Counted from the stretch's first letter, positions 16,852-53,816 are shown. The stretch: DNA of 60,443 bases from Bryobacteraceae bacterium (GCA_049686695.1 JBAVIH010000097.1:1-60443), one strand, 5' to 3'. Notes: generated from the letters alone by a model not told the origin. A program made the numbers and translations.

Positions 16852-16863
16852 CACTTCAGTAGG

Positions 16864-27674: not shown

Positions 27675-28595
27675 TCAGCGGGCGGCTGCCTGGGCAATCA
27701 CCGGACGTTCCGCGGCGGCTTCCTGCCGTAACAGTTCCAGGAAGACTCGAGTGGCCAGGTTGAACGTCTTGCGGCGGCGGTGGATGATGCCCAGCGGCCG
27801 GGCGAGCGCGCAGCCCTCGATGGGGATCGCGATCAGGCGGCCTTCTTCGATGTCGTTGCGCAACACCCGCACCGGCACGATGCTGATGCCGGCGCCCAAA
27901 ATGACGGCCTCTTTCAGCGTCTGGGTGTTGTCGAAGTGCATCACGCCGTTTACCTGAATTCCGGTCTCGCGCAAATAGCGTTTCACTTCGCGGCCCACCC
28001 GAAGATCGTCGTCGAAAGCCACGAAGTCCCGCTGCGCCAGGTCGGACGGGAGCAGCTTTTCCTTGGCCGCCAAAGCATGAGACGGAGCGGCCACAACCAT
28101 CATCTTGTCCTCGCGCCAGGGGATCACGGTAATCTCCCGGTTGGATTCGGGGTAGCTCACCAAGCCCAGGTCGGCCTGGTCCGTGATCACCGCGTCGTAG
28201 ACTTTCTCCGGCCGCAGATACTCCACCAGCAGTTGCGCTTCCGGCATTCGCACGCTCACCTCCAGCTCGAGGCGCGCCATATCGGAAATTCCGACCGAGT
28301 AGATCGCCGCAACCCTGACCGCGCCTTGGACCCGGCCTTTGAGTTTGTCCAGTTGCCGGTCGAATTCCTCCTTGCGGCGCAGCACGTCGCGACAGAACTC
28401 GTAGTAGAGACGCCCGGCTTCGGTCAGCTCGAAAGGCCGCGTGCGGCGGTCCAGGAGATCGACTCCCAACAGGCGTTCCGCTTCCTGCAACTGCTGGCTG
28501 GCCGCGGACTGGCTTACGCCGCAGATCTCAGCCCCACGGGTCATATTCCGGGCCAGGGCGACGTCCCGGAAAAGCTTGAGGTGGTCGAGGGTCAT
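27675..28595 (-). CDS. LysR-family transcriptional regulator
   Basis: 306 aa. 'LDHLKLFRDVALARNMTRGAEICGVSQSAASQQLQEAERLLGVDLLDRRTRPFELTEAGR' is the canonical LTTR HTH. Divergent from the hdr/glt/metF operon. Confidence 0.9.
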   Translation of the reverse strand: MTLDHLKLFRDVALARNMTRGAEICGVSQSAASQQLQEAERLLGVDLLDRRTRPFELTEAGRLYYEFCRDVLRRKEEFDRQLDKLKGRVQGAVRVAAIYSVGISDMARLELEVSVRMPEAQLLVEYLRPEKVYDAVITDQADLGLVSYPESNREITVIPWREDKMMVVAAPSHALAAKEKLLPSDLAQRDFVAFDDDLRVGREVKRYLRETGIQVNGVMHFDNTQTLKEAVILGAGISIVPVRVLRNDIEEGRLIAIPIEGCALARPLGIIHRRRKTFNLATRVFLELLRQEAAAERPVIAQAAAR

Positions 28596-28603
28596 CGGAT
28601 CAC

Positions 28604-28618
28604 ATTATAAGCCATAAT
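28604..28618. promoter_or_regulatory. Candidate LysR box (T-N11-A dyad ATTAT-N5-ATAAT) in an AT-rich divergent promoter region
   Basis: 'attataagccataat' lies 9 nt upstream of the lysR start. An extended -10-like 'tggtatact' (28657-28665) faces the operon, with a weak -35. Confidence 0.3.
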
Positions 28619-28700
28619 GATAGTTTCAAATATCAATACCATTTTATCTGAAAGTCTGGTATACTCCTGCCTTCCCTCTCTGAAGCGGGATTTTTCCCTT

Positions 28701-29312
28701 ATGAAACCGGACGCCGGAGCCTTAGGTATACAGCCGCAGGGCGCTTACGAGCAGGCGCCGCCCCAGCCGGCAATCACGGTTTTTCTGTGCGCCAACTGCG
28801 CCCGCCCAGCGCGGGCGGCCACCTCGGCTGGCCACCAGCGGCCGGTGGTGCCGGATTTTGCCTGGCCCTGGCCGGTGCGGCAAGCCCTGGTTTCCTGCAC
28901 CGGGCGGCTACAGCCGGAGCACGTTCTGAAAGCGTTCGAATCGGGCTCCGAGGCCGTCTGCATGGTTGCCTGTCAGGACGATAACTGCCATCATCTCGAA
29001 GGCAGCAAGCGGTGCGCGCGCCGTGCGGCCTTCCTCCGCTCCCTCCTGGAGGAGATCGGCTTGGGCGGCGAGCGTTTGATGCTCTTCCACCTGCCCGGCA
29101 CGGCGGCGGAAGACATGGCGCTGGCGTCCGGAAGAACCGTGGAAGCGCTTGCCGCCGCGGCTTCCGACGCCCAGGCGGTTGCCATCCGCGATCGGGTAAT
29201 CGGGGCCTTGCGACACCTGCCCCCCAGCCCTCTGAACAAAGCTCCCGTGGCCGGAGCGGACGACAATTCCCACCAGGAAGTGGAGTTGGGCAATGACGAC
29301 AACGAACAGTAG
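28701..29312 (+). CDS. MvhD/FlpD-like iron-sulfur protein (first copy)
   Basis: 203 aa from ATG 28701. 'ITVFLCANCA...VSCTGRLQPEHVLKAFESGSEAVCMVACQDDNCHHLEGSKRCARR...EIGLGGERLMLFHL' matches the methyl-viologen-reducing hydrogenase delta-subunit family. Confidence 0.75.
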   Translation: MKPDAGALGIQPQGAYEQAPPQPAITVFLCANCARPARAATSAGHQRPVVPDFAWPWPVRQALVSCTGRLQPEHVLKAFESGSEAVCMVACQDDNCHHLEGSKRCARRAAFLRSLLEEIGLGGERLMLFHLPGTAAEDMALASGRTVEALAAAASDAQAVAIRDRVIGALRHLPPSPLNKAPVAGADDNSHQEVELGNDDNEQ

Positions 29313-30168
29313 ACTTGGTCAGGCGCTTGGTTCCGGCCGGCTGGCTCTCACGGCTGAGTGCCTGCCGCCACGCGGCGGCGACCGTGGCGCGGTGAAGAAG
29401 CTCTCCTCCATCCTTCCAGCCCACCTCGATGCGGTGGTGGTGGCGGATAACGCTGGTGGGATTCACGGCTCGGCCCTGGCGTGCGCTGGGTTGCTGGCGG
29501 GCGAAGGCCGCCCCGCCGTGCTATCCATGGTGACGCGGGACCGCAACCGCATCGCGCTCGAGAGCGACGCTCATGGGGCGGCGGCCCTCGGCGTCGAAGC
29601 CATCTTCTGCTTGAGCGGCGACCACCAGTCTTTGGGCGTCTGTCCGCAGGCGGCCGGCGTCTACGACATCGACTCCATCCAGCTCACCCAGGCTCTTAAG
29701 AAATGGATGAGCGAGGGCCCGCTGCCGGAGTTGCCGATCGGTGCGGCCGCCCAACCCTATCAGCAGCCTCTCGAGTTGAACCTGCTCCGCCTGCGAAAAA
29801 AGATTGCGGCTGGAGCCAGCTTCGTGTTGACGCAGGCGGTATTCGACCTGGCGGGTTTCGCCAAGTGGATGGATGCCGTTCGCGCGGCCGGGCTGGACCG
29901 GCAGGTGGCGATCCTCTCGAGCGTGCTGCCGCTGACCAGTGTCGAGCAGGCCAGGGTTCTCGACGGGCGGCGCACTTACGGACCAGTGCCGGAGAGCGTA
30001 ATTGCCCGGCTGAGCGGCGCAGCGGATCCGGCCAACGAGGGAATCGAAATCGCCGCGGAAATGGCGATTCAACTCAAAGCCATCCCCGGCGTCCGCGGCA
30101 TTCACGTCCTCTGCGGCGGGTGCGAATCGGCAGCCGCCGCCGTGATCCGGAAAGCCGGGTTGGACTAG
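29293..30168 (+). CDS. metF: Methylenetetrahydrofolate reductase (MetF-family TIM barrel)
   Basis: 291 aa. Motifs 'LTAECLPPRG', 'VVVADNAGG', 'AIFCLSGDH' and 'KIAAGASFVLTQAVFD' are typical of the acetogen/anaerobe-type small MetF. Overlaps the upstream gene by 20 nt. Confidence 0.8.
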   Translation: MTTTNSRLGQALGSGRLALTAECLPPRGGDRGAVKKLSSILPAHLDAVVVADNAGGIHGSALACAGLLAGEGRPAVLSMVTRDRNRIALESDAHGAAALGVEAIFCLSGDHQSLGVCPQAAGVYDIDSIQLTQALKKWMSEGPLPELPIGAAAQPYQQPLELNLLRLRKKIAAGASFVLTQAVFDLAGFAKWMDAVRAAGLDRQVAILSSVLPLTSVEQARVLDGRRTYGPVPESVIARLSGAADPANEGIEIAAEMAIQLKAIPGVRGIHVLCGGCESAAAAVIRKAGLD

Positions 30169-30191
30169 GCGAGGCCTGAGCGAGACTCGAT

Positions 30192-31640
30192 ATGCCCGAT
30201 CGGTATCACATTCACACCGCCGCGACGCCCGGATGGTTCCGCCGGATCGGCAAATTCGCCAATGTCGATTGGCGCGAGGACTGCTCCCGCTGCAGCAATT
30301 GCGTCAAGCTTCGCTGTCTCTACGACGTCTACCGGCACGAATCGGCATTCAACCGCGACCCGATGGCGCCGGGCGCGACCCTGGACGAATGCAAAGCCTG
30401 CCTCTCCTGCGTCCAGGGCTGCACCAAGGGGCTGCTGGATGTCTCGGTGAACCCGGAATTCCTGGACATGGGCGACGCATACTGGACGCCCGGCATTATC
30501 CTCACTACCTGGAACCAGGCGGATACCGGCAGGATCCCGGTTTCGGGGGCGGGCTATCGCGGCCGGTTTCACGGTCCCGGTTTCGACTCGATCTGGACGG
30601 ACATGTCGGAAATCGTCCGGCCCACCCGCGACGGCATTCACGGGCGCGAGTACATCTCGACCAGCGTGGATATCGGTCCCAAGCCGCTGCGCCTGGAGTT
30701 CACGCCCGACGGCCGGATGTTGACGCCGCCCTTGCGGCTGCTCGAGATTCAGCTTCCGGTAATTCTCGACGTAGCGGCCTGGCGGGAGCAGGGCGCGCGC
30801 CTGGCCGCCGCACGCATCTCGGCGGCGCAGGAGCTCAAGACGCTGGCCGTGGTCCGCGCCGGCGAGGCCGTCCAGGCGCTGCCCAAGCAATTGCCGTTTG
30901 TGGTGCCCGTGGTGGCCAGGGAAGACATCGGCAATTGCCGGGACATTCTCGAGGGCGTGCGGCTGGCGCAATTGCGGGACGGCCCGGACGTTGCGGTCCT
31001 GGCCGCCGAGTTGCGCTTGATCAACGAGAAGCTGACCGTCGCGGTCCGATTGCCGCTTTCACCCGCCGCGGCCGATCGGATCCTCGAGTTGAACCGCGCC
31101 GGCATCAAGGTGTTCCAACTGTGCGCCGACCAGCACGGCCGCGAAAGGCTGGGCAACGGGCGGCACGGCCGTCATGTTAAGGACGCCCTGCGCGAAGTTC
31201 ACGGGCGGTTGGTCAAGGAAGGACTGCGCGACGAGATCACGTTGATCGTGTCCGGCGGAATTGCATTGGCGGAGCACATGGCCAAGGCGATCATCTGCGG
31301 GGCCGATCTGGTGGCCGTGGACACGGCGCTGCTGGTGGCTCTCGGCTGCCGGGTTTGCCGCGAGGCTCATCCCAGGAACCCGGAGGGCGAGGCCATGTGC
31401 GGCTCGGGCGAGTTGTGCCCCGCCGAAACCGATTCATCCGACCACGCCTACGCCACGCAGCGGATGGTAAACCTGATGGGCGCCTGGCACAGCCAGTTGA
31501 TCGAGGTTCTGGGCGCCATGGGTATCCGCGAGGTTCGCCGTCTGCGCGGCGAGGTGGGGAGGGCCATCTTCATGGAAGACATCGAGAAGGAGGCGTTCGG
31601 CGACCTCTGCCGCGTGCCTCGGTCACAGGTGAGCGCATGA
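30192..31640 (+). CDS. Glutamate-synthase FMN-domain paralog, apparently degenerate (ferredoxin-like N-terminus retained)
   Basis: 482 aa. Its N-terminal third is paralogous to the 31637 gene ('ILTTWNQADTGR' versus 'ILATWHQAATGR'). Cys motifs 'CSRCSNCVKLRC' and 'CKACLSCVQGC'. C-terminal 'IVSGGIALAEHMAKAIICGADLVAVDTALLVALGCRVC'. I cannot find the 'GGMSFG', 'TGEGG' or 'QGAKPG' motifs. Confidence 0.65.
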   Translation: MPDRYHIHTAATPGWFRRIGKFANVDWREDCSRCSNCVKLRCLYDVYRHESAFNRDPMAPGATLDECKACLSCVQGCTKGLLDVSVNPEFLDMGDAYWTPGIILTTWNQADTGRIPVSGAGYRGRFHGPGFDSIWTDMSEIVRPTRDGIHGREYISTSVDIGPKPLRLEFTPDGRMLTPPLRLLEIQLPVILDVAAWREQGARLAAARISAAQELKTLAVVRAGEAVQALPKQLPFVVPVVAREDIGNCRDILEGVRLAQLRDGPDVAVLAAELRLINEKLTVAVRLPLSPAAADRILELNRAGIKVFQLCADQHGRERLGNGRHGRHVKDALREVHGRLVKEGLRDEITLIVSGGIALAEHMAKAIICGADLVAVDTALLVALGCRVCREAHPRNPEGEAMCGSGELCPAETDSSDHAYATQRMVNLMGAWHSQLIEVLGAMGIREVRRLRGEVGRAIFMEDIEKEAFGDLCRVPRSQVSA

Positions 31641-33244
31641 CCGCAACTGATGCCGCCGTCCAAGCGCCGGTTCGGGTCCACCCGCCGGAGCCCCATTCTC
31701 CGCAACCGGTCTTCAGCGACTGGCCGCAGGAAAGCGTGGCCCGCGAAATTCGCCTCGCGCCGGACCGCTATCGCAACGCCCTGGGCAAGTACAAGGTCGA
31801 CCGGAGCGCGGCGTGCGCCTCCTGCGGAAAATGCGTGGAAGCCTGCCCGTACGGAGTGCACAGCAAGCCTGAGGGCTACGCCCTGACCCTGCGGCCGCGC
31901 GACAATTTCTGCATCGGCCCGGCCTGTGCCGAAACCCCCGAGTCCTGCGTTTCCCAGTGCCCGCAGCATGGCATCACCGTGCGGCCCAACCCCAGCGCCG
32001 AGTGCATGGGCGATCCGCGCTGGTCGAGCGATTTGATCCTGGCGACCTGGCATCAGGCCGCCACCGGGCGGCCCGCCCCGCCGCATCTGGAAAGCCGGAC
32101 GGGCGCCGCGGGCGGTGGGTTCGATAGCCTCCGGTTCAAGTTCGAGGTCCCGGGCTTCGAGCCGGGCCCGCGCCTCCCATCGGGCACCGAAATCGACACC
32201 GGCCTCGACCTGAACCATCGCGGCGATGGCCGGCCGCAGATCCACATCGACCTCCCCATCTATGGCGGCGGGATGAGCTTTGGGTCGGTCAGCATCCACA
32301 CGATTCTGGGCAAAGCCCGCGCGGCCGCGGCCTGGAACACGTTCACCTGCACTGGCGAGGGCGGATATCACGACCGTCTGAAACCCTACGACGACCACGT
32401 GATCACGCAGGTGGCCACCGGCCTCTTTGGCGTGCGCGAGGATACCATCCAGCGCGTGCGGATCGTCGAGTTCAAATATGCCCAGGGCGCCAAACCCGGC
32501 CTGGGAGGACACCTGCTGGGCGACAAGAACACCCCCGCCGTCGCGCGCATGCGCGAGGCCGTGGCGGGCAACGCGCTGTTCAGCCCCTTCCCCTTCCACA
32601 GCGTCTACAGCGTGGAAGACCACAAGAAACACGTGGATTGGATCAAGGAAGTGAATCGCCACTGCCTGGTGAGCGTGAAGGTCTCGACGCCCACCGACGT
32701 GGACATGGTGGCGGTGGGCAGCTACTGCGCGGGTGCCCATATCATCCACCTGGACGGCAGCTATGGCGGCACCGGCGCCGCGCCGGACATCGCCAAGAAG
32801 AACATCGCGATGCCCATCGAGTACGCCGTCCCGAAGGTGCACAAGTTTCTCGCTGCCGAAGGCATCCGGGACAAAGTGACGCTGATCGCCTCGGGCGGCA
32901 TCCGCACCGCGTACGACGCGCTGAAGACGATCGCCCTGGGCGCCGACGGCGTGGTGGTCGGCACGGTGGAAATGGTGGCCTTGGGGTGCGTGCGCTGCGC
33001 CTGCTGCGAAAGCGGGCGGGGCTGCCCGCGCGGCATCGCCTCCACCGATCCCGAGCTGATGATGCAGATGAGCCTGGAGTGGGCCTCCCAGCGGCTGATC
33101 AATCTCAATTTTGCCTGGCGCGAGCAGATGGCCGACGCGCTGTCGCGACTCGGAATGACATCCATCCGCGAACTCCGCGGGCGCACCGACGTGCTGTGCT
33201 ACCTCAGCGACGATGCGGTCTCCGCGGCGGAGGTCTCCTCATGA
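31637..33244 (+). CDS. gltB: Archaeal-type glutamate synthase large-subunit domain 2 (FMN/3Fe-4S domain) with N-terminal 2x[4Fe-4S] ferredoxin domain
   Basis: 535 aa, ATGA overlap. Motifs 'CASCGKCVEACPYGV', 'IYGGGMSFGSVS', 'CTGEGGY', 'KYAQGAKPGLGGHLLG', 'IHLDGSYGGTGAAP', 'IASGGIRTAYDALKTIALGADGVVVGT' and 'LGCVRCACCESGRGCPRGIAS'. Confidence 0.85.
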   Translation: MTATDAAVQAPVRVHPPEPHSPQPVFSDWPQESVAREIRLAPDRYRNALGKYKVDRSAACASCGKCVEACPYGVHSKPEGYALTLRPRDNFCIGPACAETPESCVSQCPQHGITVRPNPSAECMGDPRWSSDLILATWHQAATGRPAPPHLESRTGAAGGGFDSLRFKFEVPGFEPGPRLPSGTEIDTGLDLNHRGDGRPQIHIDLPIYGGGMSFGSVSIHTILGKARAAAAWNTFTCTGEGGYHDRLKPYDDHVITQVATGLFGVREDTIQRVRIVEFKYAQGAKPGLGGHLLGDKNTPAVARMREAVAGNALFSPFPFHSVYSVEDHKKHVDWIKEVNRHCLVSVKVSTPTDVDMVAVGSYCAGAHIIHLDGSYGGTGAAPDIAKKNIAMPIEYAVPKVHKFLAAEGIRDKVTLIASGGIRTAYDALKTIALGADGVVVGTVEMVALGCVRCACCESGRGCPRGIASTDPELMMQMSLEWASQRLINLNFAWREQMADALSRLGMTSIRELRGRTDVLCYLSDDAVSAAEVSS

Positions 33245-35829
33245 GCGACTTTGCCGAACGGCTGCTGGCCAGCCGGTCGCAGATGTACTCCGATCTCGAG
33301 CGGTTGCCGGAACGGGAGGAAGAAGGCGGCTGCGGCGTCACCGGATTTGCCTGCAGCGTTCCCGTCAAGGGACGGTTCATCTACGAGCCCTCCATCCAGA
33401 TGCAGAACCGCGGCAATGGAAAAGGAGGCGGCATCGCGGCCGTCGGCCTGGTGCCCGAGCAGATCGGCGTCTCCCGCGAGGCGCTCGAAAGCCACTACCT
33501 GCTGCAGATCGCCTTGCTCGATTCCGAGGCCCACGCCGAGGTCGAGCGGCAGTTCGTGCTGCCCCACTTCGACATCGCTCTGTCCACGCGGCAGCCCCAC
33601 ATCGGCGATTACCGCGACCTGCCCGGACTCCAGGTTCGCCCGCCGGATGTTCACCGGTACGTCGTCCGCGTCAAGCCGGACGTTCTGGATGCCTTTGCGC
33701 GCACGGCCGGGCTGCAGGGCTTGGCGCCTCGCCAGTTGGAAGATGAGTTCGTGTACCGGAACTCCTACCGGCTCAATGAAGCCTTCTACGCATCTCTGGG
33801 CGAAAAGCGGGCCTTCGTTCTTTCGCACGGCAGGAACCAACTGGTCTTCAAAATGGTCGGCTACGCCGAGCAGAACGTCGAGTATTACCAGCTTCAGGAT
33901 TTCGCCGCCCACGTGTGGATCGCTCATCAGCGCTATCCCACCAAAGGCCGAGTGTGGCACCCCGGCGGGGCGCACCCGTTCACCGGGCTGAACGAGGCGC
34001 TGGTGCACAACGGCGACTTCGCCAACTACCACTCCGTGTGCGAGTACCTGCGCCAGCGCAACATCCGCCAGCAGTTCCTCACCGACACGGAGGTTTCCGT
34101 CCAGCTCTTCGACCTGTGGGACCGCGTCTACCAATATCCGCTGGAGTACATCATCGAGGCGCTGGCCCCCACCACGGAGCTCGATTTCGACCAGTTGCCG
34201 CCCGAGAAGCAGGCGATCTACCGGCAGATCCAGGCCACCCACGTTCATGCCTCGCCGGATGGCCCGTGGTTCTTCATCATCGCGCGCACCCATCAGGACC
34301 GGTTCCAGTTGCTGGGAATCACCGACACCGCGATGCTGCGGCCGCAGGTGTTCGCCTTCTCCGATAGCGGCGACGTCCAGATCGGGCTGATCTGCTCGGA
34401 GAAGCAGGCCATCGACGCTACCCTGCGCAGCCTGGCCAAAGAGGATCCGCGGTTCTGCCCCGTGGCGGACAAGTATTGGAACGCCCGCGGCGGGTCCAGC
34501 AGCGATGGCGGCGCGTTCGTCTTCACCGTGTCGCCGGACGAGAACGGCGGCAAGCGGCTCTCCTGCGCGGACAAGTTCGGCCGCGCGGTGAAACTGGAGG
34601 GCGGCTCGGTTCGCTGCGACCTGGGGAGCTTCGAGGTAAACGGCAACGGAACGTCCGGCGCCGTGAAGGAGATGCAGCAGACCGGCGACGTGGAGGGCCT
34701 TTTCGGGTACGCGCTCGGCCTGGCTGCCTGGCCGGCCGGCCAGTTGCGGCAGTTCTGCCAGGGCTTGGTGCGGGGAGCCGGCAGCGTGGTATCCCGCGCG
34801 GCTGCCCTCGAGGCGCTAACGCTGTTGCATGACCGCCGCTTCGACACCGGCGACAAGCGCCGCGCCACGGCGATTCAGGTAATCGAGGAGGCCATCGACC
34901 GCCTGCTCGACTCCGCTCCGCTGTTTGGCGAGCCGCCGGCTCACCTGTGGCGGCGGATTACCTGGGCCACGCGCGACCGCCTCGCCGCCCCGCGCTCCGG
35001 CGAGGACCTGCTGGTGATCGACGCCCAGGGCTTCCCTCCCGAGGGCGAGGACTGCGATGCCAGGCTGCTCCGCCGCGCTTACGAAACCGGTTGGAAGCGT
35101 TTTGCCGTCTACCGGCTGCGCGGCCAGCGTTTCCATGGAGCGGGCCTGGGCGCCGCCACCGACGGCGTTCGGATCGACCTCTACGGCTCCAATGGCGATT
35201 ACGCCGCCAGCGGCATGGATGGCCTCGAGATCCGCATCCACGGCAATGCCCAGGACCAGGTGGCGCAGATCGCCAAGCGCGGAAAGCTGGTCATCTACGG
35301 CGACGTTGGCCAGACCTTCATGTACGGCGCCAAGGGAGGCGAGGTCTACGTTCTCGGCAACGCCGCGGGCCGCCCCCTGATCAACGCGGTGGGACGCCCG
35401 CGCGTGGTGATCAACGGAACCTGCCTGGATTTCCTGGCCGAGTCGTTCATGGCCGGCGATCCGCTGGCCGGCGGCGGCTTCGTCATCCTCAACGGCATCG
35501 AGTTCGACTCGACCGGCCGCCTCACACCACTGGCCGCGCCCTATCCGGGGGCCAACCTGTTCTCGCTTGCCAGCGGCGGGGCCATCTACATCCGCGATCC
35601 GCACCAACACGTAGTCGAGCGCCAGCTTAACGGCGGCGTCTTCGGCCCGGTCACCGACAAGGACTGGCGCTTGATCCGCCCGTACCTGGAGGAGAACGAG
35701 CGGCTGTTCGGCATACCGGTGCGGGAGTTGCTGACCGTGGATGGCCACGCCGCTGCGCCGGGGGACGTGTATCGCAAGGTCTGCGCCGTGAAACTCTCGG
35801 TGCTGGCCGGTTCGGAGAAAAAGAAATGA
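33241..35829 (+). CDS. Fusion of class-II (Ntn) glutamine amidotransferase domain and GXGXG domain (glutamate synthase domains 1 + 3)
   Basis: 862 aa, ATGA overlap. 'EEGGCGVTGFACS' gives a putative Cys nucleophile after a roughly 30-aa propeptide. 'HQRYPTKG...HPF...LVHNGDFANY'. C-terminal 'VYRLRGQRFHGAGL...IRIHGNAQDQVA...LVIYGDVGQTFMYGAKGGEVYVLGNAAGRP' is a GXGXG beta-helix. Confidence 0.8.
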   Translation: MSDFAERLLASRSQMYSDLERLPEREEEGGCGVTGFACSVPVKGRFIYEPSIQMQNRGNGKGGGIAAVGLVPEQIGVSREALESHYLLQIALLDSEAHAEVERQFVLPHFDIALSTRQPHIGDYRDLPGLQVRPPDVHRYVVRVKPDVLDAFARTAGLQGLAPRQLEDEFVYRNSYRLNEAFYASLGEKRAFVLSHGRNQLVFKMVGYAEQNVEYYQLQDFAAHVWIAHQRYPTKGRVWHPGGAHPFTGLNEALVHNGDFANYHSVCEYLRQRNIRQQFLTDTEVSVQLFDLWDRVYQYPLEYIIEALAPTTELDFDQLPPEKQAIYRQIQATHVHASPDGPWFFIIARTHQDRFQLLGITDTAMLRPQVFAFSDSGDVQIGLICSEKQAIDATLRSLAKEDPRFCPVADKYWNARGGSSSDGGAFVFTVSPDENGGKRLSCADKFGRAVKLEGGSVRCDLGSFEVNGNGTSGAVKEMQQTGDVEGLFGYALGLAAWPAGQLRQFCQGLVRGAGSVVSRAAALEALTLLHDRRFDTGDKRRATAIQVIEEAIDRLLDSAPLFGEPPAHLWRRITWATRDRLAAPRSGEDLLVIDAQGFPPEGEDCDARLLRRAYETGWKRFAVYRLRGQRFHGAGLGAATDGVRIDLYGSNGDYAASGMDGLEIRIHGNAQDQVAQIAKRGKLVIYGDVGQTFMYGAKGGEVYVLGNAAGRPLINAVGRPRVVINGTCLDFLAESFMAGDPLAGGGFVILNGIEFDSTGRLTPLAAPYPGANLFSLASGGAIYIRDPHQHVVERQLNGGVFGPVTDKDWRLIRPYLEENERLFGIPVRELLTVDGHAAAPGDVYRKVCAVKLSVLAGSEKKK

Positions 35830-36401
35830 CGGGCGACATCGCACCTCCAATCGAAATCGAGAGCATCGGCGGCGGCCTGGCTCTTGAGGTGCACGAGCGC
35901 AGCGGGGCCTCGCCCATGAGCTGCTACCAGTGCGCCAAGTGCTCCAGCGGCTGCCCGGTTGCGGCCGGAAGCGATTTCAGGCCCCACCAACTGGTGCGCA
36001 TGGTGCAGACGAATCAGCATCAGGCGGTTCTCTCCAGCCGTTTCCTCTGGCAGTGCACGTCCTGCCAGACCTGCACCACGCGTTGTCCGCAGCAGGTCGA
36101 TATCGCCGGCATGATCGACGCTCTGCGCGCCATCAGCCGCAGCGCTGGATCGGCCGAGCCCGCCGCCGCCGTTCCGATCTTCAACGATATCTTCCTCGCT
36201 GCCGTCCGCGAGCGCGGGCGAATCTTCGAGCTGGGCCTGATGGTCCAGTTCAAACTCCGCACCAAGCGGCTGTTCGAGGACGCGGGCAAAGCGCCGATGA
36301 TGCTGCGCAAGGGCAAGCTGCCGCTCTCCGCTCCGCGGGTGGACGGGAAGGACGAGCGCGAGGCCCTGTTCGGCCGGGCCGCCGAGGGAGGCGCCAAGTG
36401 A
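35826..36401 (+). CDS. hdrC: Heterodisulfide reductase subunit C-like (2x[4Fe-4S])
   Basis: 191 aa, ATGA overlap. Motifs 'CYQCAKCSSGCP' and 'CTSCQTCTTRCP'. Confidence 0.85.
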   Translation: MTGDIAPPIEIESIGGGLALEVHERSGASPMSCYQCAKCSSGCPVAAGSDFRPHQLVRMVQTNQHQAVLSSRFLWQCTSCQTCTTRCPQQVDIAGMIDALRAISRSAGSAEPAAAVPIFNDIFLAAVRERGRIFELGLMVQFKLRTKRLFEDAGKAPMMLRKGKLPLSAPRVDGKDEREALFGRAAEGGAK

Positions 36402-37264
36402 GCTACGCGTTTTTTCCGGGCTGTTCGCTGGACGGCGCCGCCAAGGATTACCATCGCTCGACGCTCGCGGTGGCCGCCAGGCTGGGCCTGGAAATGCCCG
36501 AGCTGAAGGACTGGATCTGCTGCGGCTCGACGGCGGCTCACGCGAGCGACCCGCTGCTGGCCGATGCTCTGCCGGCCAAGAGCCTCTCCGGCGCCGGCGG
36601 CAGCACGGTCGCGGTGGCCTGCGCCGCCTGCTACAGCCGGCTCAAGACGGCGAACCACCATATCGCGGGAGATGCCGCCCTGCGCGCCCGCGTGGCGCAC
36701 GTGGTCGGGCGCGACTATGACGGCCGGACTCCGGTCCTGCACCTGCTCGAAATCCTCTGCCGCGACATTGGCCTGGCGCGGGTCGCGGCAGCCGTTCGCC
36801 GCCCGCTCACCGGGCTGAAGGTGGCCTGCTACTACGGATGTCTGCTCGCGCGTCCGCCGGAGATCACCAATTTCGACGACCCCGAAAACCCCACGCTGAT
36901 GGATCGGCTCATCGAAGCCGCCGGGGCGGAGCCGCTCGATTGGCCGCACAAGACCGAGTGCTGCGGCGCCAGCTTCTCGATCACCGATTCGAGCGTCGTG
37001 CTGGAGCTTGGCAACCGGATTCTCGCCATGGCGCAGGCGGCCGGAGCCGATTGCATCGCCACCGCCTGCCCCCTGTGCCAACTGAACCTGGACATGCGGC
37101 AGAAGGATATGGAGCGCAAGTTCGGACGCCGGTACAATCTGCCGGTGTTCTATTTCACCCAGTTGCTGGGCCTGGCGATGGGTTGCCGGCCGGACGAACT
37201 ATCCTTGGACAGCCTGATCGTGGGACCAAAGGAGTTGCTCGAAGCCAAGGGAATCGGACGCTGA
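36398..37264 (+). CDS. hdrB: Heterodisulfide reductase subunit B-like (two CCG domains)
   Basis: 288 aa from GTG 36398, with a GTGA overlap. Motifs 'YAFFPGCSL', 'WICCGST', 'VACYYGCLL', 'TECCGAS' and 'ATACPLCQLNLD'. Confidence 0.9.
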   Translation: MSYAFFPGCSLDGAAKDYHRSTLAVAARLGLEMPELKDWICCGSTAAHASDPLLADALPAKSLSGAGGSTVAVACAACYSRLKTANHHIAGDAALRARVAHVVGRDYDGRTPVLHLLEILCRDIGLARVAAAVRRPLTGLKVACYYGCLLARPPEITNFDDPENPTLMDRLIEAAGAEPLDWPHKTECCGASFSITDSSVVLELGNRILAMAQAAGADCIATACPLCQLNLDMRQKDMERKFGRRYNLPVFYFTQLLGLAMGCRPDELSLDSLIVGPKELLEAKGIGR

Positions 37265-37267
37265 GGC

Positions 37268-40200
37268 ATGACGATGATCGCGAACAATGGGAATGGGCAT
37301 AAGCCCGAAGCTGTCGGCGCAGTGCTGGTTTGCGGGGCCGGCGTCACCGGCATCCAGGCCTCTCTCGATCTCGCCGGGAGCGGATTCAAGGTCTATCTTC
37401 TGGATTCCTCCCCCGCCATCGGCGGGCGCATGGCCCAACTCGACAAGACCTTCCCCACCGGCGATTGCGCCATGTGCATCCTTTCGCCCAAGTTGGTGGA
37501 GTGCGCGCGGAACAAGAACATCGAGATCATCACCCTGGCGGACGTGGAGGGGATCTCGGGCGAGCCCGGTCATTTCCAGGTCAAGATCCGCCAGAACCCG
37601 CGCTACGTGGATACGGCCAAGTGCAACGCGTGCGGCGAATGCAGCGAGGCCTGTCCGGTCAGCCTGCGCAGCGAGTTCGACCGCAACCTGGGGACGCGCA
37701 AGGCCATCTTCCGGCCTTACCCTCAGGCCATTCCCAACGTATTCGGCATTTCCAAAGCCGCCGGGCCCGCGCCCTGCAAATCCGCCTGCCCGGCCGGCGT
37801 AAACGCCCAGGGGTACGTGGCCCTGGTTGCGGCCGGCAAGTTCCCGGAAGCCTACGCTCTGATCCGCCAGCGCTGCCCGCTCCCGGCGGCTTGCGGGCGC
37901 GTATGCCAGCATCCCTGCGAGGACAACTGCAACCGCGGCGAAATCGACGAGGCCGTCTCGGTCCGCGATCTGAAGCGCTTCGTTGCCGACTACATCCACG
38001 CGAACCCTAGCCAGTATCCGCCCGCGAAGGCGGCTGCCGCCAGGCTGGATTCGAGGGTCGCCATCATCGGGGGCGGCCCGGCCGGCTTGACCGTGGCTGC
38101 CGATCTTGCCCTGCGCGGCCATCGCATCACGCTATTCGAGGCGCAGTCGCACCTGGGCGGCATGCTCCGCTACGGCATTCCCGATTACCGGCTGCCCGAG
38201 GATGTCCTGGATCGCGAGATTCAATACATCCTGGACTTGGGCGTAGAGGCCAGAACCGGTGAGCGGGTGGCCGATCCGAAAAGCCTCTTAAGAGTGGCCG
38301 GCGCGGATTCTCCGGCGGCGCAGTTCGACGCCGTCTTCGTGGCTCCCGGCGCATGGCTCGGCCGCAAGATGGGCATTCCGGGCGAAGACGCCCAGGGCGT
38401 CTGGGAAGCGCTCGACTTCCTCTACAAGGTCAACGACGGGAAGCCGCCGGCCATCGGCCCCAACGTGGTGGTGATCGGCGGCGGCGATGTGGCGATGGAC
38501 GCGGCCCGCTGCGCGCGGCGGCTGCCCGGAGTTCAATCGGTCACAGTGGCCTACCGCAGAAGCCGTGCGGAAATGCCGGCCCATTCCTGGGAAGCGGCCG
38601 AAGCTCTCGAAGAAGGCGTGGTCTTCCACACCGATCTGGGACCGGCCCGGATCGAGACGGCGGACGGAAAGGTTTCCGCCATCGCGTTCCACCCGCGCAT
38701 CGCCGGCTCCGGCCCGACCAGGCGGACCGAGCCGCGCTTCGACGAATCGCAGACCACCGTCCTCAAAGCGGACACCGTTATCGCAGCCATCGGCCAGGCC
38801 ATCGACTCGGCCGGCATGGGCGTCGCCACCGGATCGAGCGGCCGGATCGCCGCTGACAAGAGCACGCTGGCCACCAGCATCGCCGGCATCTTCGCGGGCG
38901 GAGACGCCGTGCTGGGTCCGGCCTCCATCGCCGATGCGATGGGCCAGGGCCACGTGGCAGCCGAGGCCATCGATGCCTACCTTCGCGGCGGCAAAGCGGC
39001 CAATGCGCCATCGGCTACCGCGCAGGCCGCCCCGGCCCGCAATCCCAAGCCGGGCGCGCCGCGGGAAGACCGCGTCAAGATGGCGCAGACGGACATGGCC
39101 ACGCGGCAGCGCGCCTTCACCGAGATCAACCGGGGCTATACCGCGGAGCAGGCCATTGCCGAAGCCAAACGCTGCCTGGCGTGCGGCCTGTGCAGCGAGT
39201 GCATGGAGTGCGTGAAAGTCTGTTCGCCCGGCGCCATATTCCACAATCAGCAGGCCCAGGAACGCCAGATCGACGTCGGCAGCGTGATTCTCACCCCCGG
39301 CTTCGAGGAGTTCCAGGCGTCGCTGCGCGGCGAGTTCGGCCACGGCCGCTATTCGAACGTGCTCTCGAGCGTCCAGTTCGAGCGAATGCTCTCCGCGGCC
39401 GGTCCCACCGGCGGTGTCATCGAGCGCCCATCGGATGGCGGCGCGGTCAGCCGCATCGCTTTCATCCAATGCGTGGGCAGCCGCGATACGGCCCGCGGCG
39501 CGGGCTACTGCTCGTCCATCTGCTGCATGAGCGCCACCAAAGAGGCGATGGTCGCGCTCGAGCACGCGCACGGGCGGAAACTCGAAATTTCGATTTTCTG
39601 TATGGACGTGCGGGCGTTCGGCAAGGAGTTCGATAGCTACGTCAACCGCGCCCGCGACGAGCACGGCGTGAAGTTCATCCGGGCCATCCCCTCCCGTGTG
39701 GTCGAGATGCCCGGCGACCGGACACCGCGCATTCGCTACTTCGACCAGGACGGCGCAGAACAGCAGCGGGATTTCGACCTCGTGGTGCTCAGCGTGGGGC
39801 TGCGGCCCTCCGCCGGCGTGAAGGAAATGGCTGGCCGGCTGGGGGTGGAGCTCAACGAGTTCGGTTTCAGCCGGACCGGGCGGCTGGCTCCGCTGGCCAC
39901 ATCCAAGCCGGGCATATACGTGGCCGGGGCATTCCAGGAGCCCAAGGACATTCCCGAATCGGTGGCCCAGGCCTCCGCGGCCGCCGCTTGCGCCATGGGC
40001 CAGCTCGCGCCTTCCCGCGGCACCATGATCCAGCGCCACGAATACCCCTGGGAGCGGGATATCACCGACGAGAGCCCGCGCGTGGGCGTGTTCATCTGCC
40101 ACTGCGGCCACAACATCGCTTCGGTCATCGACGTGAAACAGGTGGCCGATAAAGCCGCCGGCATGCCCCACGTCTGCCACTCCGAAGCCAACCTGTACAC

Positions 40201-41764
40201 CTGCTCGGATACCAACCAGCAGCACATCAGGAACATGATCGCCAAGCACCGGCTCAACCGCCTGGTGGTGTCCTCCTGCTCGCCGCGGACTCACGAGATG
40301 CTCTTCCAGGAGACGCTCCGCGAGAGCGGGCTGAACCAGTATCTCTTCGCCATGACCAATATTCGGGACCAGTGCTCCTGGGTCCACCGGGACGATCCCG
40401 AGGCGGCCACCGCGAAAGCGCTGGAACTGACCTCGATGGCGGTTGCCCGGGCGCGGCACGTGAAAGCCCTTCCGACGGGCCGGTTGCCCGTGACGGCATC
40501 TGCCCTGGTCATCGGCGGCGGCCTGGCCGGCATGACCGCGGCCCTGGGCCTCGCCGAGCAGGGGTTCGCAGTTCACCTGGCGGAGAAAGAGCCGCAGTTG
40601 GGCGGCCTGCTCCGCGGCGTCAACAGCTCGCTCGAAGGGGCCGATGTGCAGAACTACCTGCACCAGCTCGTGGCCCGCGTCCAGTCTCACGAGAAGATCC
40701 ACCTGTACCTGAATGCCACGCCTGCCGCGATTAGCGGCCACGTGGGCAATTTCAAGAGCATCCTGAGAGTGGCCGGGCGCGAACAGCCCGTCAGCCACGG
40801 GGTGGTGATCGTGGCGGTTGGCGGGCAGCGGAGAGAGACGGCGATGTACCTCCACGGCCAGAACCCACACGTGACCACGCAGGCCGGGCTAGAGACTTCG
40901 CTCAAGGGCGGAAATCTGCCGCCGGAACTGGCGGGCAAGCCGGATCCTACCGTGGTCATGATTCAGTGCGTCGAAAGCCGCAACGGCCAGCACCCCTATT
41001 GCAGCCGGATCTGCTGTTCGGAAGCGGTTCAGAACGCGCTGGAGATCAAGCGCCGCCTGCCGCTGGCCAAGGTGGCTGTGCTGGGCCGCGACATCCGCAC
41101 CTACGGGTTCCGCGAGGTGTACTTTCAGAAGGCCCGCGAGGCCGGGGTGCTGTTCATCCGCTATCCGGACGGGAGCGACCCGGTGGTGACCGAGGAAGGC
41201 GGCCGGCTCAAGGTGACCGTCCACGATATCGGGAGCAACCGCGACCTGGTTCTGCGCCCGGACCTGCTCGCCTTGGCGACCGGCATCGCTCCGGCCGCCG
41301 ACAACCCGGCGCTCTCGATGTTGCTGCGCAGCGCCCTGACCGCCGACGGCTTCTTCCTCGAGGCCCACCCGAAGCTCCGCCCGGTGGATCTGGCCAATGA
41401 GGGCGAATTCCTCTGCGGGCTGGCACACTCGCCCCGATTCATCGACGAGACCATTGCACAGGCTCAGGCAGCCGCGGGGCGGGCCGCCACCATCCTGTCC
41501 AAGACTCACCTGGAGGTTCCCGGCCAGGTCGCCCGCGTCAACCCGGAGAACTGCGTCGCTTGCGCCACCTGCGTGAAGGTCTGCCCGTACGGGGCGCCGG
41601 CGATCAACAACCTCAACAAGGCCGAAATCCAGAGCGCCAAGTGCATGGGGTGCGGAAGCTGCGCGGCGGCCTGCCCAGCCAGGACCATCGTCCTCCAGCA
41701 CCAGGAAGACCAAGCCTTGGTGGCGATGCTCGACGAGTTGCTCGTCGCCGGAGTCAACGCATGA
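37268..41764 (+). CDS. hdrA: Giant HdrA-type flavoprotein: HdrA module with inserted GltD/NfnB-like NAD(P)H domain, second HdrA module, C-terminal ferredoxin (HdrL-like)
   Basis: 1498 aa. HdrA motifs: 'VLVCGAGVTGIQASLDLA', 'DKTFPTGDCAMCIL', 'IAFIQCVGSRD...YCSSICCM'. GltD-like motifs: 'CQHPCEDNCNRGEIDEAVSVRDLKRF', 'VAIIGGGPAGLTVAADLALRGHRITLFE..HLGGMLRYGIPDYRLP'. Second HdrA module: 'ALVIGGGLAGMTAALGLAEQG' and 'VMIQCVESRN...YCSRICCS'. C-terminal 'CVACATCVKVCPYGAP' and 'CMGCGSCAAACP'. Confidence 0.9.
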   Translation: MTMIANNGNGHKPEAVGAVLVCGAGVTGIQASLDLAGSGFKVYLLDSSPAIGGRMAQLDKTFPTGDCAMCILSPKLVECARNKNIEIITLADVEGISGEPGHFQVKIRQNPRYVDTAKCNACGECSEACPVSLRSEFDRNLGTRKAIFRPYPQAIPNVFGISKAAGPAPCKSACPAGVNAQGYVALVAAGKFPEAYALIRQRCPLPAACGRVCQHPCEDNCNRGEIDEAVSVRDLKRFVADYIHANPSQYPPAKAAAARLDSRVAIIGGGPAGLTVAADLALRGHRITLFEAQSHLGGMLRYGIPDYRLPEDVLDREIQYILDLGVEARTGERVADPKSLLRVAGADSPAAQFDAVFVAPGAWLGRKMGIPGEDAQGVWEALDFLYKVNDGKPPAIGPNVVVIGGGDVAMDAARCARRLPGVQSVTVAYRRSRAEMPAHSWEAAEALEEGVVFHTDLGPARIETADGKVSAIAFHPRIAGSGPTRRTEPRFDESQTTVLKADTVIAAIGQAIDSAGMGVATGSSGRIAADKSTLATSIAGIFAGGDAVLGPASIADAMGQGHVAAEAIDAYLRGGKAANAPSATAQAAPARNPKPGAPREDRVKMAQTDMATRQRAFTEINRGYTAEQAIAEAKRCLACGLCSECMECVKVCSPGAIFHNQQAQERQIDVGSVILTPGFEEFQASLRGEFGHGRYSNVLSSVQFERMLSAAGPTGGVIERPSDGGAVSRIAFIQCVGSRDTARGAGYCSSICCMSATKEAMVALEHAHGRKLEISIFCMDVRAFGKEFDSYVNRARDEHGVKFIRAIPSRVVEMPGDRTPRIRYFDQDGAEQQRDFDLVVLSVGLRPSAGVKEMAGRLGVELNEFGFSRTGRLAPLATSKPGIYVAGAFQEPKDIPESVAQASAAAACAMGQLAPSRGTMIQRHEYPWERDITDESPRVGVFICHCGHNIASVIDVKQVADKAAGMPHVCHSEANLYTCSDTNQQHIRNMIAKHRLNRLVVSSCSPRTHEMLFQETLRESGLNQYLFAMTNIRDQCSWVHRDDPEAATAKALELTSMAVARARHVKALPTGRLPVTASALVIGGGLAGMTAALGLAEQGFAVHLAEKEPQLGGLLRGVNSSLEGADVQNYLHQLVARVQSHEKIHLYLNATPAAISGHVGNFKSILRVAGREQPVSHGVVIVAVGGQRRETAMYLHGQNPHVTTQAGLETSLKGGNLPPELAGKPDPTVVMIQCVESRNGQHPYCSRICCSEAVQNALEIKRRLPLAKVAVLGRDIRTYGFREVYFQKAREAGVLFIRYPDGSDPVVTEEGGRLKVTVHDIGSNRDLVLRPDLLALATGIAPAADNPALSMLLRSALTADGFFLEAHPKLRPVDLANEGEFLCGLAHSPRFIDETIAQAQAAAGRAATILSKTHLEVPGQVARVNPENCVACATCVKVCPYGAPAINNLNKAEIQSAKCMGCGSCAAACPARTIVLQHQEDQALVAMLDELLVAGVNA

Positions 41765-42243
41765 TTCAACCGGATTTGGAACCAATCGCGAGCGCCGTTC
41801 CCGCCGCGCGATGGGAGCCGCGCATACTCGCCTTCTGCTGCAACTTCTGCGCTTATGCGGCAGCCGACCTGGCGGGATCCAAGCGCATGCAGTATCCCGT
41901 CAACGTGCGAATCGTCCACACGCCCTGCACGGGCAAGATCGAAATGGAACACGTCCTCGACGCCTTCGAGAAGGGCATCGACGGAATTCTCGTGGCCGGA
42001 TGCCTGGAAGGCGGCTGCCACTTCCTGGAGGGCAACCTCCGGGCGCGCAAGCACACCGGCCGCATCCGGGAGATTCTCGATGAAATCGGCGTCGGCGCCG
42101 AGCGGCTCAAGATGGTGAACCTCTCGGCCGCCATGGCGCCTACGTTCGTCGAGCGCGTCCAGGAGATCGTCGAAACCGTCCGCGCGCTGGGCCCCAGTCC
42201 GCTGAAACCGTCCAGCCGGAAAGAGAGTGCAGGAGAGCCATGA
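41761..42243 (+). CDS. mvhD: MvhD/FlpD (methyl-viologen-reducing hydrogenase delta subunit-like) protein, second copy
   Basis: 160 aa, ATGA overlap. 'ILAFCCNFCAYAAADLAG...VRIVHTPCTGKIEMEHVLDAFEKGIDGILVAGCLEGGCHFLEGN'. Confidence 0.9.
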   Translation: MIQPDLEPIASAVPAARWEPRILAFCCNFCAYAAADLAGSKRMQYPVNVRIVHTPCTGKIEMEHVLDAFEKGIDGILVAGCLEGGCHFLEGNLRARKHTGRIREILDEIGVGAERLKMVNLSAAMAPTFVERVQEIVETVRALGPSPLKPSSRKESAGEP

Positions 42244-42908
42244 TCGTCGCTTCCCCCAAGTCCGTTACGGAACTCAAGAACCTCGTCGCGTCCCACCACA
42301 AGGTCCTTTTTGTGGGCTGTGGAACCTGCGTCACGGTCTGCTTGGCCGGCGGCGAGCGCGAGGTGGGTATCGCCTCCTATGCCGTTCGCATGGCTCGCAA
42401 AATCGAAGGGAAGCCTCTCGAACTCATTCAGATCACGATTGAACGCCAGTGCGAGAACGAGTTCATCAAGGACCTCGCGGAACCGGCGTCCAAAGCCGAC
42501 GCCATCGTGTCTTTCGGCTGCGGCGCGGGCGTGCAGGCGATCACCGAGCGGTTCCCCGGCAAACCGGTCTACCCCGCGCTGAATACGCAGTTTCTCGGCA
42601 TCCTCGAGGAACAGGCGGTCTGGACGGAGAAGTGCCTGGGCTGTGGCGACTGCATGCTGGCGCAGTTCGGCGGCATCTGCCCGCTGACCCGGTGCGCCAA
42701 GCGCGTGCTCAACGGTCCCTGCGGCGGCTCGACCGAAACCGGGTGCGAGGTGGACGACGGCCGCCCTTGCGCCTGGCAGCTCATCTTCCAGCGCCTCAAG
42801 GGCATCGATCAACTCGACCGCCTGGACGCCATCGTCCCACCCAAGGATTGGCGCCCCAGTTGGCACGGCAGCCCCCGCAAGATCGTCCGCGAAGAGCATA
42901 GAGTGTAA
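42240..42908 (+). CDS. metV: MetV-like protein (MTHFR C-terminal/zinc-ribbon-type Fe-S domain)
   Basis: 222 aa, ATGA overlap. 'FVGCGTCVTVC', 'CLGCGDCMLAQFGGICPLTRCAKRVLNGPCGG' and 'CAWQLI' match the MTHFR_C / MetV family. Confidence 0.8.
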   Translation: MIVASPKSVTELKNLVASHHKVLFVGCGTCVTVCLAGGEREVGIASYAVRMARKIEGKPLELIQITIERQCENEFIKDLAEPASKADAIVSFGCGAGVQAITERFPGKPVYPALNTQFLGILEEQAVWTEKCLGCGDCMLAQFGGICPLTRCAKRVLNGPCGGSTETGCEVDDGRPCAWQLIFQRLKGIDQLDRLDAIVPPKDWRPSWHGSPRKIVREEHRV

Positions 42909-50272: not shown

Positions 50273-50306
50273 TCGGAATTCGAAACTGCATTCATGAACG
50301 GTGCGC

Positions 50307-53811: not shown

Positions 53812-53816
53812 TCCGC

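Follow-up and report, generated by a model that had tools for sequence, protein, structure and literature searches.

A Widespread Gene Cluster Joining a Probable Split Glutamate Synthase to MetF, MetV, and MvhD

A DNA stretch of 60,443 nucleotides from a Bryobacteraceae bacterium (GCA_049686695.1, JBAVIH010000097.1:1-60443; this whole stretch is called the window) carries ten plus-strand genes, at 28701-42908, in which three glutamate-synthase-type genes, named C, D, and E here, lie among genes of the MetF, MetV, MvhD, and Hdr types. We found this Glt-MetFV-Hdr architecture to be real, widespread, and apparently undescribed; it is built from known modules, and no description of the combination was found in the literature searched, in agreement with an earlier interpretation made from the sequence alone (the sequence-only reading). 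The invariant unit is MvhD, MetF, MetV, C, D, and E. Judged from its residues and its neighbors, the C-D-E part is most likely a working glutamine-dependent glutamate synthase (GOGAT) for nitrogen assimilation. With slightly better than even confidence, we lean toward NAD(P)H-driven glutamate synthesis in one complex, in which MetF would be a second port making methyl-tetrahydrofolate (CH3-THF).

The Cluster Recurs Across Bacterial Phyla

Homologs of E formed more than 7,600 protein clusters at 90% identity. Loci with E numbered more than 531 in at least nine named bacterial groups, and 80 of them were taken for comparison. Gene content was tallied after tblastn with the ten window proteins; 60 loci had enough upstream sequence, 54 had enough flank, and 45 had at least 5.5 kb upstream and 7.5 kb downstream of E. 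The E family is compact and strongly conserved, because an exhaustive HMMER search yielded only 305 clusters at 50% identity with E-values up to 1e-30. Carriers include Acidobacteriota, Actinomycetota, Myxococcota, Planctomycetota, Desulfobacterota, Dehalococcoidales, Armatimonadota, Poribacteria, and others, and a search starting from a Desulfococcaceae E protein returned almost only metagenome-assembled genomes (MAGs).

The order C-D-E was kept in 60/60 loci. Beside it stood an mvhD gene in 53 of the 54 flanked loci, metV in 52 (including the metF-less clusters L071 and L082), and metF, metV, and mvhD together in 51; one locus, L062, had C-D-E alone. The complete ten-gene order was found in Acidobacteriota, Actinomycetota, Myxococcota, Planctomycetota, and Armatimonadota (21/45 loci), and six loci had it minus hdrCB. 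The order mvhD-metF-C-D-E-metV without hdr genes occurred in two fully flanked loci and in three overall (L022, L023, and L025), mvhD-metV-metF-C-D-E in eight (Desulfobacterales, Dehalococcoidales, Poribacteria, and others), and mvhD-C-D-E-metV-metF in Syntrophobacteraceae-like loci. Because the full order recurs and C-D-E never varies, the ten-gene arrangement is not due to chance. Glt, MetFV, and MvhD genes thus keep company well beyond the window, and this conservation of synteny across phyla supports a functional link among the Glt-like, MetFV, and Hdr proteins.

The hdrC-hdrB-hdrL-mvhD2 block is present in the Bryobacteraceae window, Actinomycetota, Myxococcota, and Planctomycetota and absent from Desulfobacterota, Dehalococcoidales, and some Acidobacteriota versions; type-1b loci lack hdrBC. 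From this distribution, it looks like an accessory insertion just before metV, one that recreates the Moorella order, hdrCB-hdrA-mvhD-metV. The sequence-only reading had proposed an Hdr-centered complex, which is probably not correct, the hdr block being missing from several lineages and lying outside the invariant unit.

A rather unlikely alternative is that the ten genes encode two independent, cotranscribed enzymes with neither physical nor redox coupling between them: a ferredoxin-dependent split GOGAT (C-D-E) and an NAD(P)H-dependent methylene-tetrahydrofolate (CH2-THF) reductase, or MTHFR, made of HdrL-HdrBC-MvhD-MetFV. Each gene set does resemble a known enzyme (PMC5861303 for the Moorella-type MTHFR), a separate hdrCB-hdrL-mvhD-metV-metF cluster lies beside the complete core in L067 and L074, and L062 shows that C-D-E can occur by itself. 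In a MetF tree, core-linked and Hdr-linked copies interleave with no separate clade, so that MetF would be an ordinary MetFV-type enzyme rather than a distinct lineage. Against this separation, MvhD, MetV, and MetF stay with C-D-E in 51/54 loci, in three gene orders and also in Hdr-less clusters, and MvhD and MetV sit between glnA and C even where metF is missing. In the window itself, the glt genes are flanked on both sides by MTHFR genes, with metF and mvhD1 upstream of C and metV past hdrL, at a distance of 12 kb. Moreover, C-D-E has no candidate electron-input subunit apart from these partners; a GltD-like domain is encoded only inside HdrL.

C, D, and E Carry the Motifs of a Glutamine-Dependent Glutamate Synthase

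D (31637..33244, 535 aa) is a glutamate-synthase FMN subunit with an N-terminal 2x[4Fe-4S] domain (Fer4 and PF01645, 296 bits). It matches the GltS large chains 1ea0/2vdc/1ofd at ∼2e-48, corresponding to the synthase domain of Azospirillum, Bacillus, and Synechocystis GltS, and in both NCBIfam and the PDB it matches glutamate synthase large chains best. Invariant in 48 sequences and A4 are AQGAKPGLGGHLLG, TGEGG, GGTGAAP, and C451-x2-C454-x2-C457-x5-C463-P; AQGAKPG and an Arg pair are likewise kept as invariant residues, and the 2-oxoglutarate site retains its Lys and Arg residues together with its GEGG motif. Compared with GltS, two active-site positions differ (GEGGQ to GLGGH), and the cluster motif has four Cys (C-x2-C-x2-C-x5-C-P) rather than three. 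The Fe-S cluster of D is, on this motif, likely [4Fe-4S] in place of the [3Fe-4S] of GltS.

E (33241..35829, 862 aa) fuses an Ntn glutamine amidotransferase to a GXGXG β-helix (GATase_6 and GXGXG); the latter scored 50.6 bits with PF01493 against a cutoff of 32.5 and matches FwdC (5t5i_C). A propeptide of ∼30 residues precedes Cys31, and the alignment to PurF begins at Cys1. The motif GGC31GVxG is present in 71/71 sequences covering that position, and R57, HQR(Y)PT(K)G, HNG...N, and TDT are each kept in 67-74 of 74 homologs from many phyla. Identity of E is 59-94% across the named groups; the closest relatives, at 76-94%, are from Bryobacteraceae/Terriglobia MAGs of soil and peat, and the protein is unchanged on a 408-kb metagenome contig.

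C (30192..31640, 482 aa) is a catalytically dead FMN-subunit paralog, detected by Pfam through Fer4 and the C-terminal third of Glu_synthase (60 bits). The sequence-only reading had called it a degenerate GltB paralog, and hhalign of C against D (probability 100, E 1.5e-55, 420 columns) established it as a full-length paralog that has lost a ∼44-residue active-site segment (AQGAKPG...SVEDH) and the GGGMSFGS and TGEGG motifs. It retains both [4Fe-4S] ferredoxin motifs (CxxCxxCxxxxC and CxxCxxCxxxC) and an FMN-phosphate-like SGGIA..GAD. Residues 113-155 (30528-30656), PVSGAGYxGxF..GFDxIWTDMSEIVRPTRDGIHGREYI, are almost invariant across phyla and could be an interface, part of an ammonia tunnel, or a ligand site. 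These features suggest that C is likely a noncatalytic Fe-S wire or docking subunit.

All the sequence marks of a GOGAT are therefore found in the set: an Ntn amidotransferase with its catalytic Cys, an FMN synthase domain with an adjacent Fe-S motif, and a GXGXG domain.

Nitrogen-Assimilation Genes Adjoin Related Loci

We clustered all flanking open reading frames (ORFs) of the related loci and then searched them with Pfam. The sole recurrent neighbors were nitrogen-assimilation genes: ammonium transporters in nine loci, P-II in eight, and glutamine synthetase in seven. Amt, P-II, and GlnA genes lie mostly immediately upstream on the same strand, including in the ten-gene Actinomycetota loci L020, L024, and L034; they directly adjoin the cluster in 12 of loci L002-L081, and glnA is also found in L082. 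Downstream neighbors were carA/carB and a PurF-like amidotransferase gene. L082 (4034-18793 of the closed Desulfobacterales chromosome CP070768.1) reads glnA-mvhD-metV-C-D-E-carA-carB-purF-like and has no metF, which indicates a GOGAT of the glutamine synthetase-GOGAT (GS-GOGAT) pathway with MvhD and MetV as its own subunits.

Perfect σ54 boxes (TGGCAY-N5-TTGCW) were found in 7/10 of the type-1b and type-1c loci examined, all seven being type-1b loci of Acidobacteriota, with the −24/−12 boxes lying 5′ of mvhD1 at L012 4949, L014 5049, L017 4589, L019 4748, L036 5048, L080 4654, and L028 5503. A σ54 activator gene with an unusual N-terminal domain lies upstream in six of these seven (all but L028).

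The invariant catalytic residues, taken together with the amtB/glnK/glnA/carAB/purF neighbors, argue for true GOGAT activity. The sequence-only reading had spoken of a "glutamate-synthase-like reaction"; the family assignment stands, and its reserve gives way to what is most likely genuine glutamine-dependent glutamate synthesis. We regard it as very unlikely that the Glt-like proteins are not a GOGAT and instead catalyze another amide transfer or reductive amination tied to the folate one-carbon (C1) pool, such as an N-methylglutamate-synthase-like reaction. N-methylglutamate synthase, an enzyme of a C1 pathway, is likewise assembled from GATase, GXGXG, and FMN subunits, and the two altered active-site positions (GLGGH) and four-Cys motif of D would fit a changed chemistry. 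However, neither gmaS nor N-methylglutamate dehydrogenase genes were found in the window or the 80 related loci, where nitrogen-assimilation neighbors stand instead; D is closest to glutamate synthase large chains; and its 2-oxoglutarate site is kept. The N-methylglutamate synthase (MgsABC) assignment was rejected on gene context.

GlcD-Like Fusions Suggest a Docking Role for C

We also found single chains of 2,200-3,150 aa in which GlcD-like FAD_binding_4/FAD-oxidase_C and Fe-S domains are fused to C-, D-, and E-like modules: P0510, P0464 (NUM35480.1, Ca. Brocadiia), P0391, P0438, and P0425 (L083 8001-17459). P0464 and P0510 keep all GOGAT catalytic motifs. In L086 (2877-10313) and L087 (794-8230), a 1110-aa GlcD plus Fe-S plus C-like protein, with the GlcD-Fe-S part at the N terminus of the C-like part, is followed by an IS200-type transposase gene, D, and an E homolog (38% identity) that has lost the Ntn cysteine, HQRYPT, and HNG and is thus a glutaminase-dead derivative. 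The fusions therefore share the C/D/E-like modules of the window and join them to a partner flavoprotein through Fe-S domains; they differ in that the partner is FAD_binding_4/FAD-oxidase_C instead of MvhD-MetV-MetF, in being encoded as one polypeptide or as two or three genes, and in the loss of glutaminase residues in one clade. Because a GlcD-like dehydrogenase with Fe-S domains is fused to the same C/D/E set elsewhere, this type of GOGAT seems to take its partner flavoprotein through the ferredoxin domain of C, with MetF/MetV/MvhD seemingly the commonest partner.

The analogy also bears on the direction of electron flow. GlcD-like enzymes normally donate electrons at a potential similar to that of CH3-THF, and use of CH3-THF as donor by MetF running in reverse would be feasible and is favored by this analogy. 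In its full form, which we consider doubtful, the same complex would work backward: MetF would oxidize CH3-THF (E0′ ∼ −200 mV), GOGAT would be a pyridine-nucleotide-independent electron sink, and HdrL would balance the pool. Such a sink would accept electrons too positive to reduce NAD+, the minimal six-gene clusters have no recognizable NAD(P)H-binding subunit, and the alternative fused partner is an FAD-linked 2-hydroxyacid dehydrogenase of GlcD type. One report (PMC8760232) did not find NAD(P)H to serve the MetVF-type enzymes of acetogens and hypothesized ferredoxin as donor. Several points oppose reversal. Catabolic methyl flux greatly exceeds that of nitrogen assimilation, which rules this out as the main route of methyl oxidation; the version in the window also has the classical GOGAT donor, an NAD(P)H domain of GltD type; nothing in the window points to methyl-group oxidation by this acidobacterium; and the glutaminase is dead in one GlcD-linked clade.

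The Met, MvhD, and Hdr Genes Resemble Known MTHFR Systems

The family assignments of the sequence-only reading (FlpD, MTHFR, Glu_synthase, GATase, GXGXG, CCG, HdrA/Pyr_redox, and MetV PF12225) held in a Pfam search. metF (29293..30168, 291 aa) matches PF02219 (MTHFR) over its full length at 79 bits and is only a distant match to the Thermus and Escherichia coli MTHFR structures; the motifs LTAECLPP (catalytic Glu), LSGD (Asp), and LTQAVFD (Gln) are present, by comparison with E. coli MetF. Its Cys-rich Fe-S partner is encoded by metV (42240..42908, 222 aa; PF12225, 120 bits). A MetF (PF02219) with Glu, Asp, and Gln motifs and a PF12225 MetV, the features of a MetFV-type MTHFR, are thus both encoded; the PDB contained neither a MetV structure nor a MetFV complex. 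Two [2Fe-2S] adaptors are encoded, a divergent MvhD/FlpD-type one by mvhD1 (28701..29312, 203 aa; PF02662, 82 bits) and a canonical MvhD by mvhD2 (41761..42243, 160 aa; PF02662, FlpD, 157 bits).

The hdrC gene (35826..36401, 191 aa; Fer4_8/Fer4_17; TIGR03290, 68 bits) encodes a 2x[4Fe-4S] dicluster subunit, and hdrB (36398..37264, 288 aa; PF02754 in two stretches; TIGR03288, 200 bits) encodes a protein with two CCG domains of the noncubane [4Fe-4S] type and both CCG/CxxC sets in sequence. hdrL (37268..41764, 1498 aa; Pyr_redox_2/Fer4_20/Fer4; NF009410, 543 bits vs. a cutoff of 516) has the layout HdrA, NfnB/GltD-like, HdrA. Its first HdrA FAD module (residues 19-161 and 641-∼925) is split by the NfnB/GltD-like insert (∼168-650), and the second is complete (929-1490); four pieces align to methanogen HdrA (8rvu/5odc), namely 19-161, 641-860, 929-1099, and 1356-1490. 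The insert, of NAD(P)H/FAD/2x[4Fe-4S] type, matches NfnA 9n5u, the NfnI subunit 5jca_L, and GltD 2vdc_G, which confirms that a GltD-like domain is built into HdrA. The two MvhD genes would fit the two HdrA modules of HdrL.

HdrL agrees with the published definition of Strittmatter et al. 2009 (PMC2702500), a large HdrA with a glutamate-synthase-small-subunit/NADH domain followed by mvhD. The same fusion followed by mvhD occurs in Desulfobacterium autotrophicum HRM2 and Syntrophobacter fumaroxidans, and HdrL of sulfate reducers has been proposed as an NADH entry point (PMC2702500, PMC5947623). Those loci, however, are described beside dsr, fdh, or hdrABC, with no link to GltB-type or MetFV proteins reported.

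The closest described relatives of the Met and Hdr genes are the MetFV-HdrABC-MvhD MTHFRs of Moorella thermoacetica and Sporomusa ovata, with the same MetF, MetV, MvhD, HdrB, and HdrC families, the same block order hdrC-hdrB-hdrA(L)-mvhD-metV, and genes gathered in a six-gene cluster. In the window, by contrast, the place of HdrA is taken by the 1498-aa HdrL, with its built-in NfnB/GltD-like domain and second HdrA module; two MvhD proteins are encoded, metF is found 12 kb upstream, separated from metV by the glt and hdr genes, and the cluster encloses three glutamate-synthase genes. Its hosts are soil Acidobacteria rather than acetogens. By sequence, the window genes resemble the Moorella and Sporomusa enzymes without being straightforward members. 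The Moorella enzyme has a pyridine-nucleotide input and a further redox partner still to be named (PMC5861303).

With known GOGATs (NADPH-GltBD and the split archaeal-type GltB), the operon shares the Ntn glutaminase, FMN synthase motifs, GXGXG, and an Fe-S motif near FMN, and it also encodes a GltD-like NAD(P)H domain. It differs from archaeal-type GltB, where GATase, FMN (+ferredoxin), and GXGXG proteins are separate, in fusing GATase to GXGXG in one 862-aa chain. Unlike known GOGATs, it has the dead paralog C, a four-Cys motif where they have the three-Cys [3Fe-4S] motif, a GltD-like domain embedded in HdrL, and MvhD, MetV, and MetF as obligatory neighbors.

Proposed Electron Path

In the model we favor, the operon product would be one multisubunit Fe-S flavoenzyme with a split glutamine-dependent glutamate synthase as its catalytic heart. 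E would release ammonia from glutamine at the Ntn cysteine exposed on removal of the ∼30-residue propeptide, and the FMN site of D would reduce 2-iminoglutarate to glutamate. C would be the electron-entry and docking subunit, a role suggested by synteny and the fusions. This GOGAT would have no pyridine-nucleotide subunit of its own and would be wired to the MetF flavin by MvhD ([2Fe-2S]) and MetV (Fe-S), giving a putative path MetF flavin-MetV-MvhD-C-D(FMN). In the Bryobacteraceae version, into which the Moorella-like hdrC-hdrB-hdrL-mvhD2 block appears inserted before metV, the NfnB/GltD-like domain of HdrL would be the entry point for NAD(P)H, and the two HdrA-type modules, with one MvhD each, would pass electrons to two ports. 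At the first, the C/D chain, 2-oxoglutarate and glutamine would yield two glutamate; at the second, MetV/MetF, CH2-THF would be reduced to CH3-THF. The physiological role would be GS-GOGAT nitrogen assimilation, redox-coupled to the folate one-carbon pool.

NAD(P)H has a potential of about −320 mV, and 2-oxoglutarate + NH4+/glutamate lies at about −0.13 V. The CH2-THF/CH3-THF couple is at −200 mV (PMC5861303). Both acceptors are thus more positive than NAD(P)H, so that bifurcation is not thermodynamically required. Electron bifurcation in the complex is a possibility; in one version, which we hold to be quite improbable, NAD(P)H electrons entering at HdrL would be split at an HdrA flavin, downhill to GOGAT and/or to CH2-THF or the HdrB disulfide, and uphill to ferredoxin. 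GOGAT would then represent the kind of "second partner" that Hdr-MetFV complexes have been missing. In favor of this, two HdrA-type modules are present in HdrL, HdrBC has intact CCG motifs, and the window encodes a BcrAD/BadFG-type activase, a class that needs low-potential electrons. Bifurcation is known to take place at the HdrA flavin, and for the Moorella enzyme a second acceptor has yet to be found (PMC5861303). Against bifurcation stand the dispensability of the Hdr block in most lineages, the type-1b loci without hdrBC, and the absence of an identified ferredoxin site in the sequence.

Several observations weigh against the favored scheme of NAD(P)H-driven glutamate synthesis in one complex. 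The window has no nitrogen-assimilation neighbors, and its promoter is σ70-like, with an extended −10 box; the LysR regulator is not identifiable as GltC. Given the interleaved MetF tree, MetF may do its ordinary job independently. Subunit contacts are proposed from synteny and fusions rather than at the protein level, and an AlphaFold2 model of C (from a 32-sequence alignment) reached a mean pLDDT of only 50. Electrons might pass through MetF in either direction, and the HdrB disulfide-type site has no role in the scheme.

More tentatively, and with well under even confidence, GOGAT may be the direct redox partner of MetFV-type MTHFR through MvhD and MetV, with CH3-THF/CH2-THF and, by bifurcation in the Hdr versions, NAD(P)H coupled to glutamate formation. 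The physiological partner of MetFV-type MTHFR and the second acceptor of Hdr-MetFV complexes have been open questions since 2014 (PMC5861303, PMC8760232), and the electron supply of split archaeal-type GOGATs is largely obscure; the cluster links the two, and its conservation, often beside amtB-glnK-glnA, makes both experimentally tractable. Should GOGAT prove to be the MetFV partner, a single enzyme would serve both nitrogen assimilation and folate C1 metabolism. GOGAT-type modules would then act as a general "plug-in" that takes up electrons from flavoprotein dehydrogenases (MetF and GlcD-like), and MetFV/Hdr complexes outside acetogens would gain a concrete candidate for their long-sought physiological partner. 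Source annotations of these proteins read "glutamate synthase," "glutamate synthase-related protein," "ferredoxin," or "hypothetical"; since abundant Acidobacteria of peat and soil and Desulfobacterota of sediments are among its carriers, the cluster could be a major misannotated route of nitrogen assimilation.

Operon Layout and Promoter Region

All ten ORFs were found on the plus strand with the coordinates and order claimed in the sequence-only reading. The nine junctions measure, in order, −20, +23, −4, −4, −4, −4, +3, −4, and −4 nt, reproducing the claimed six 4-nt overlaps, one 20-nt overlap, and gaps of 23 and 3 nt; the 4-nt overlaps are ATGA at junctions 3, 4, 5, 8, and 9 and GTGA at junction 6 (hdrC/hdrB). 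A scan of approximately 28.9-41.9 kb found no terminator-like site. Together with the overlapping junctions and one conserved promoter region 5′ of mvhD1, this makes the single transcription unit of the sequence-only reading plausible, and we take the ten genes as a plausible single operon on these sequence features.

The divergent LysR-family regulator (27675..28595, minus strand; Pfam HTH_1 and LysR_substrate) is likewise where it had been placed, and homologs with 79-83% identity occupy the same position in L004, L005, and L007, the closest Bryobacterales loci. NCBIfam gave no specific family for it; the GltC model scored 108 bits against a cutoff of 350, and assignment as GltC was dropped. 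The two genes share an A+T-rich promoter region (28596..28700). An alignment of eight Bryobacterales loci identified in it a conserved box, ATTATAAGCCA (28604-28614), upstream of an extended −10 box, TCTGGTATACT (28655-28665); each occurs once within the window. Because this −10 box and the ATG context are kept in all eight loci, we placed the mvhD1 start at ATG 28701, not at the upstream ATG 28617. A σ54 candidate in the window, TGGTATACTCCTGC, with GG-N9-GC spacing, was rejected, the alignment showing it to be an extended −10 box.

NCBIfam searches with the ten operon proteins gave no specific model, the sole cutoff reached being that of a generic NAD(P)-binding model on hdrL, and an Rfam search of the window and seven related loci found no glutamine, SAM, or THF riboswitch near the clusters.

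In the nearly identical locus L001, a ∼4.4-kb patch covering LysR, mvhD1, metF, C, and the start of D (window 27700-32100, L001 4450-8850) is ∼5% divergent and contains 20 single-base indels, with the genes frameshifted in L001. Outside it, the two sequences are near-identical over 22.6 kb, with nine substitutions (eight at 23.5-25 kb and one at ∼35 kb). The patch stems either from recombination at the strain level or from a long-read consensus of mixed strains.

Other Features of the Window

Upstream of the operon, 17469-21158 (plus strand) encodes an OdhA/Kgd-type 2-oxoglutarate dehydrogenase to which an E2 acyltransferase domain is fused (NF008907, 1716 bits), an architecture best known from Actinobacteria and found here in an acidobacterium. 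The actinobacterial origin that this gene had suggested was rejected, since homologs and near-identical contigs belong to Bryobacteraceae/Terriglobia. The region 1501-16926 holds anaerobe-flavored redox genes, including the BcrAD/BadFG-type activase (1021 aa, with DUF2229), an alternative-complex-III-like set (cytochrome c7-like, molybdopterin Fe4S4, NrfD, and GCV_H-like), a GlpC-like CCG protein, rubrerythrin, and an FMN reductase. Downstream, two copies of the Acido-Lenti-1 RNA (RF01687) lie on opposite strands just downstream of an FtsX-type permease gene, at 48168-48211 (minus) and 48313-48356 (plus), with scores of 37 and 44 bits. Five consecutive PQQ_2/BamB-like β-propeller genes, on both strands, occupy 49126-56454.

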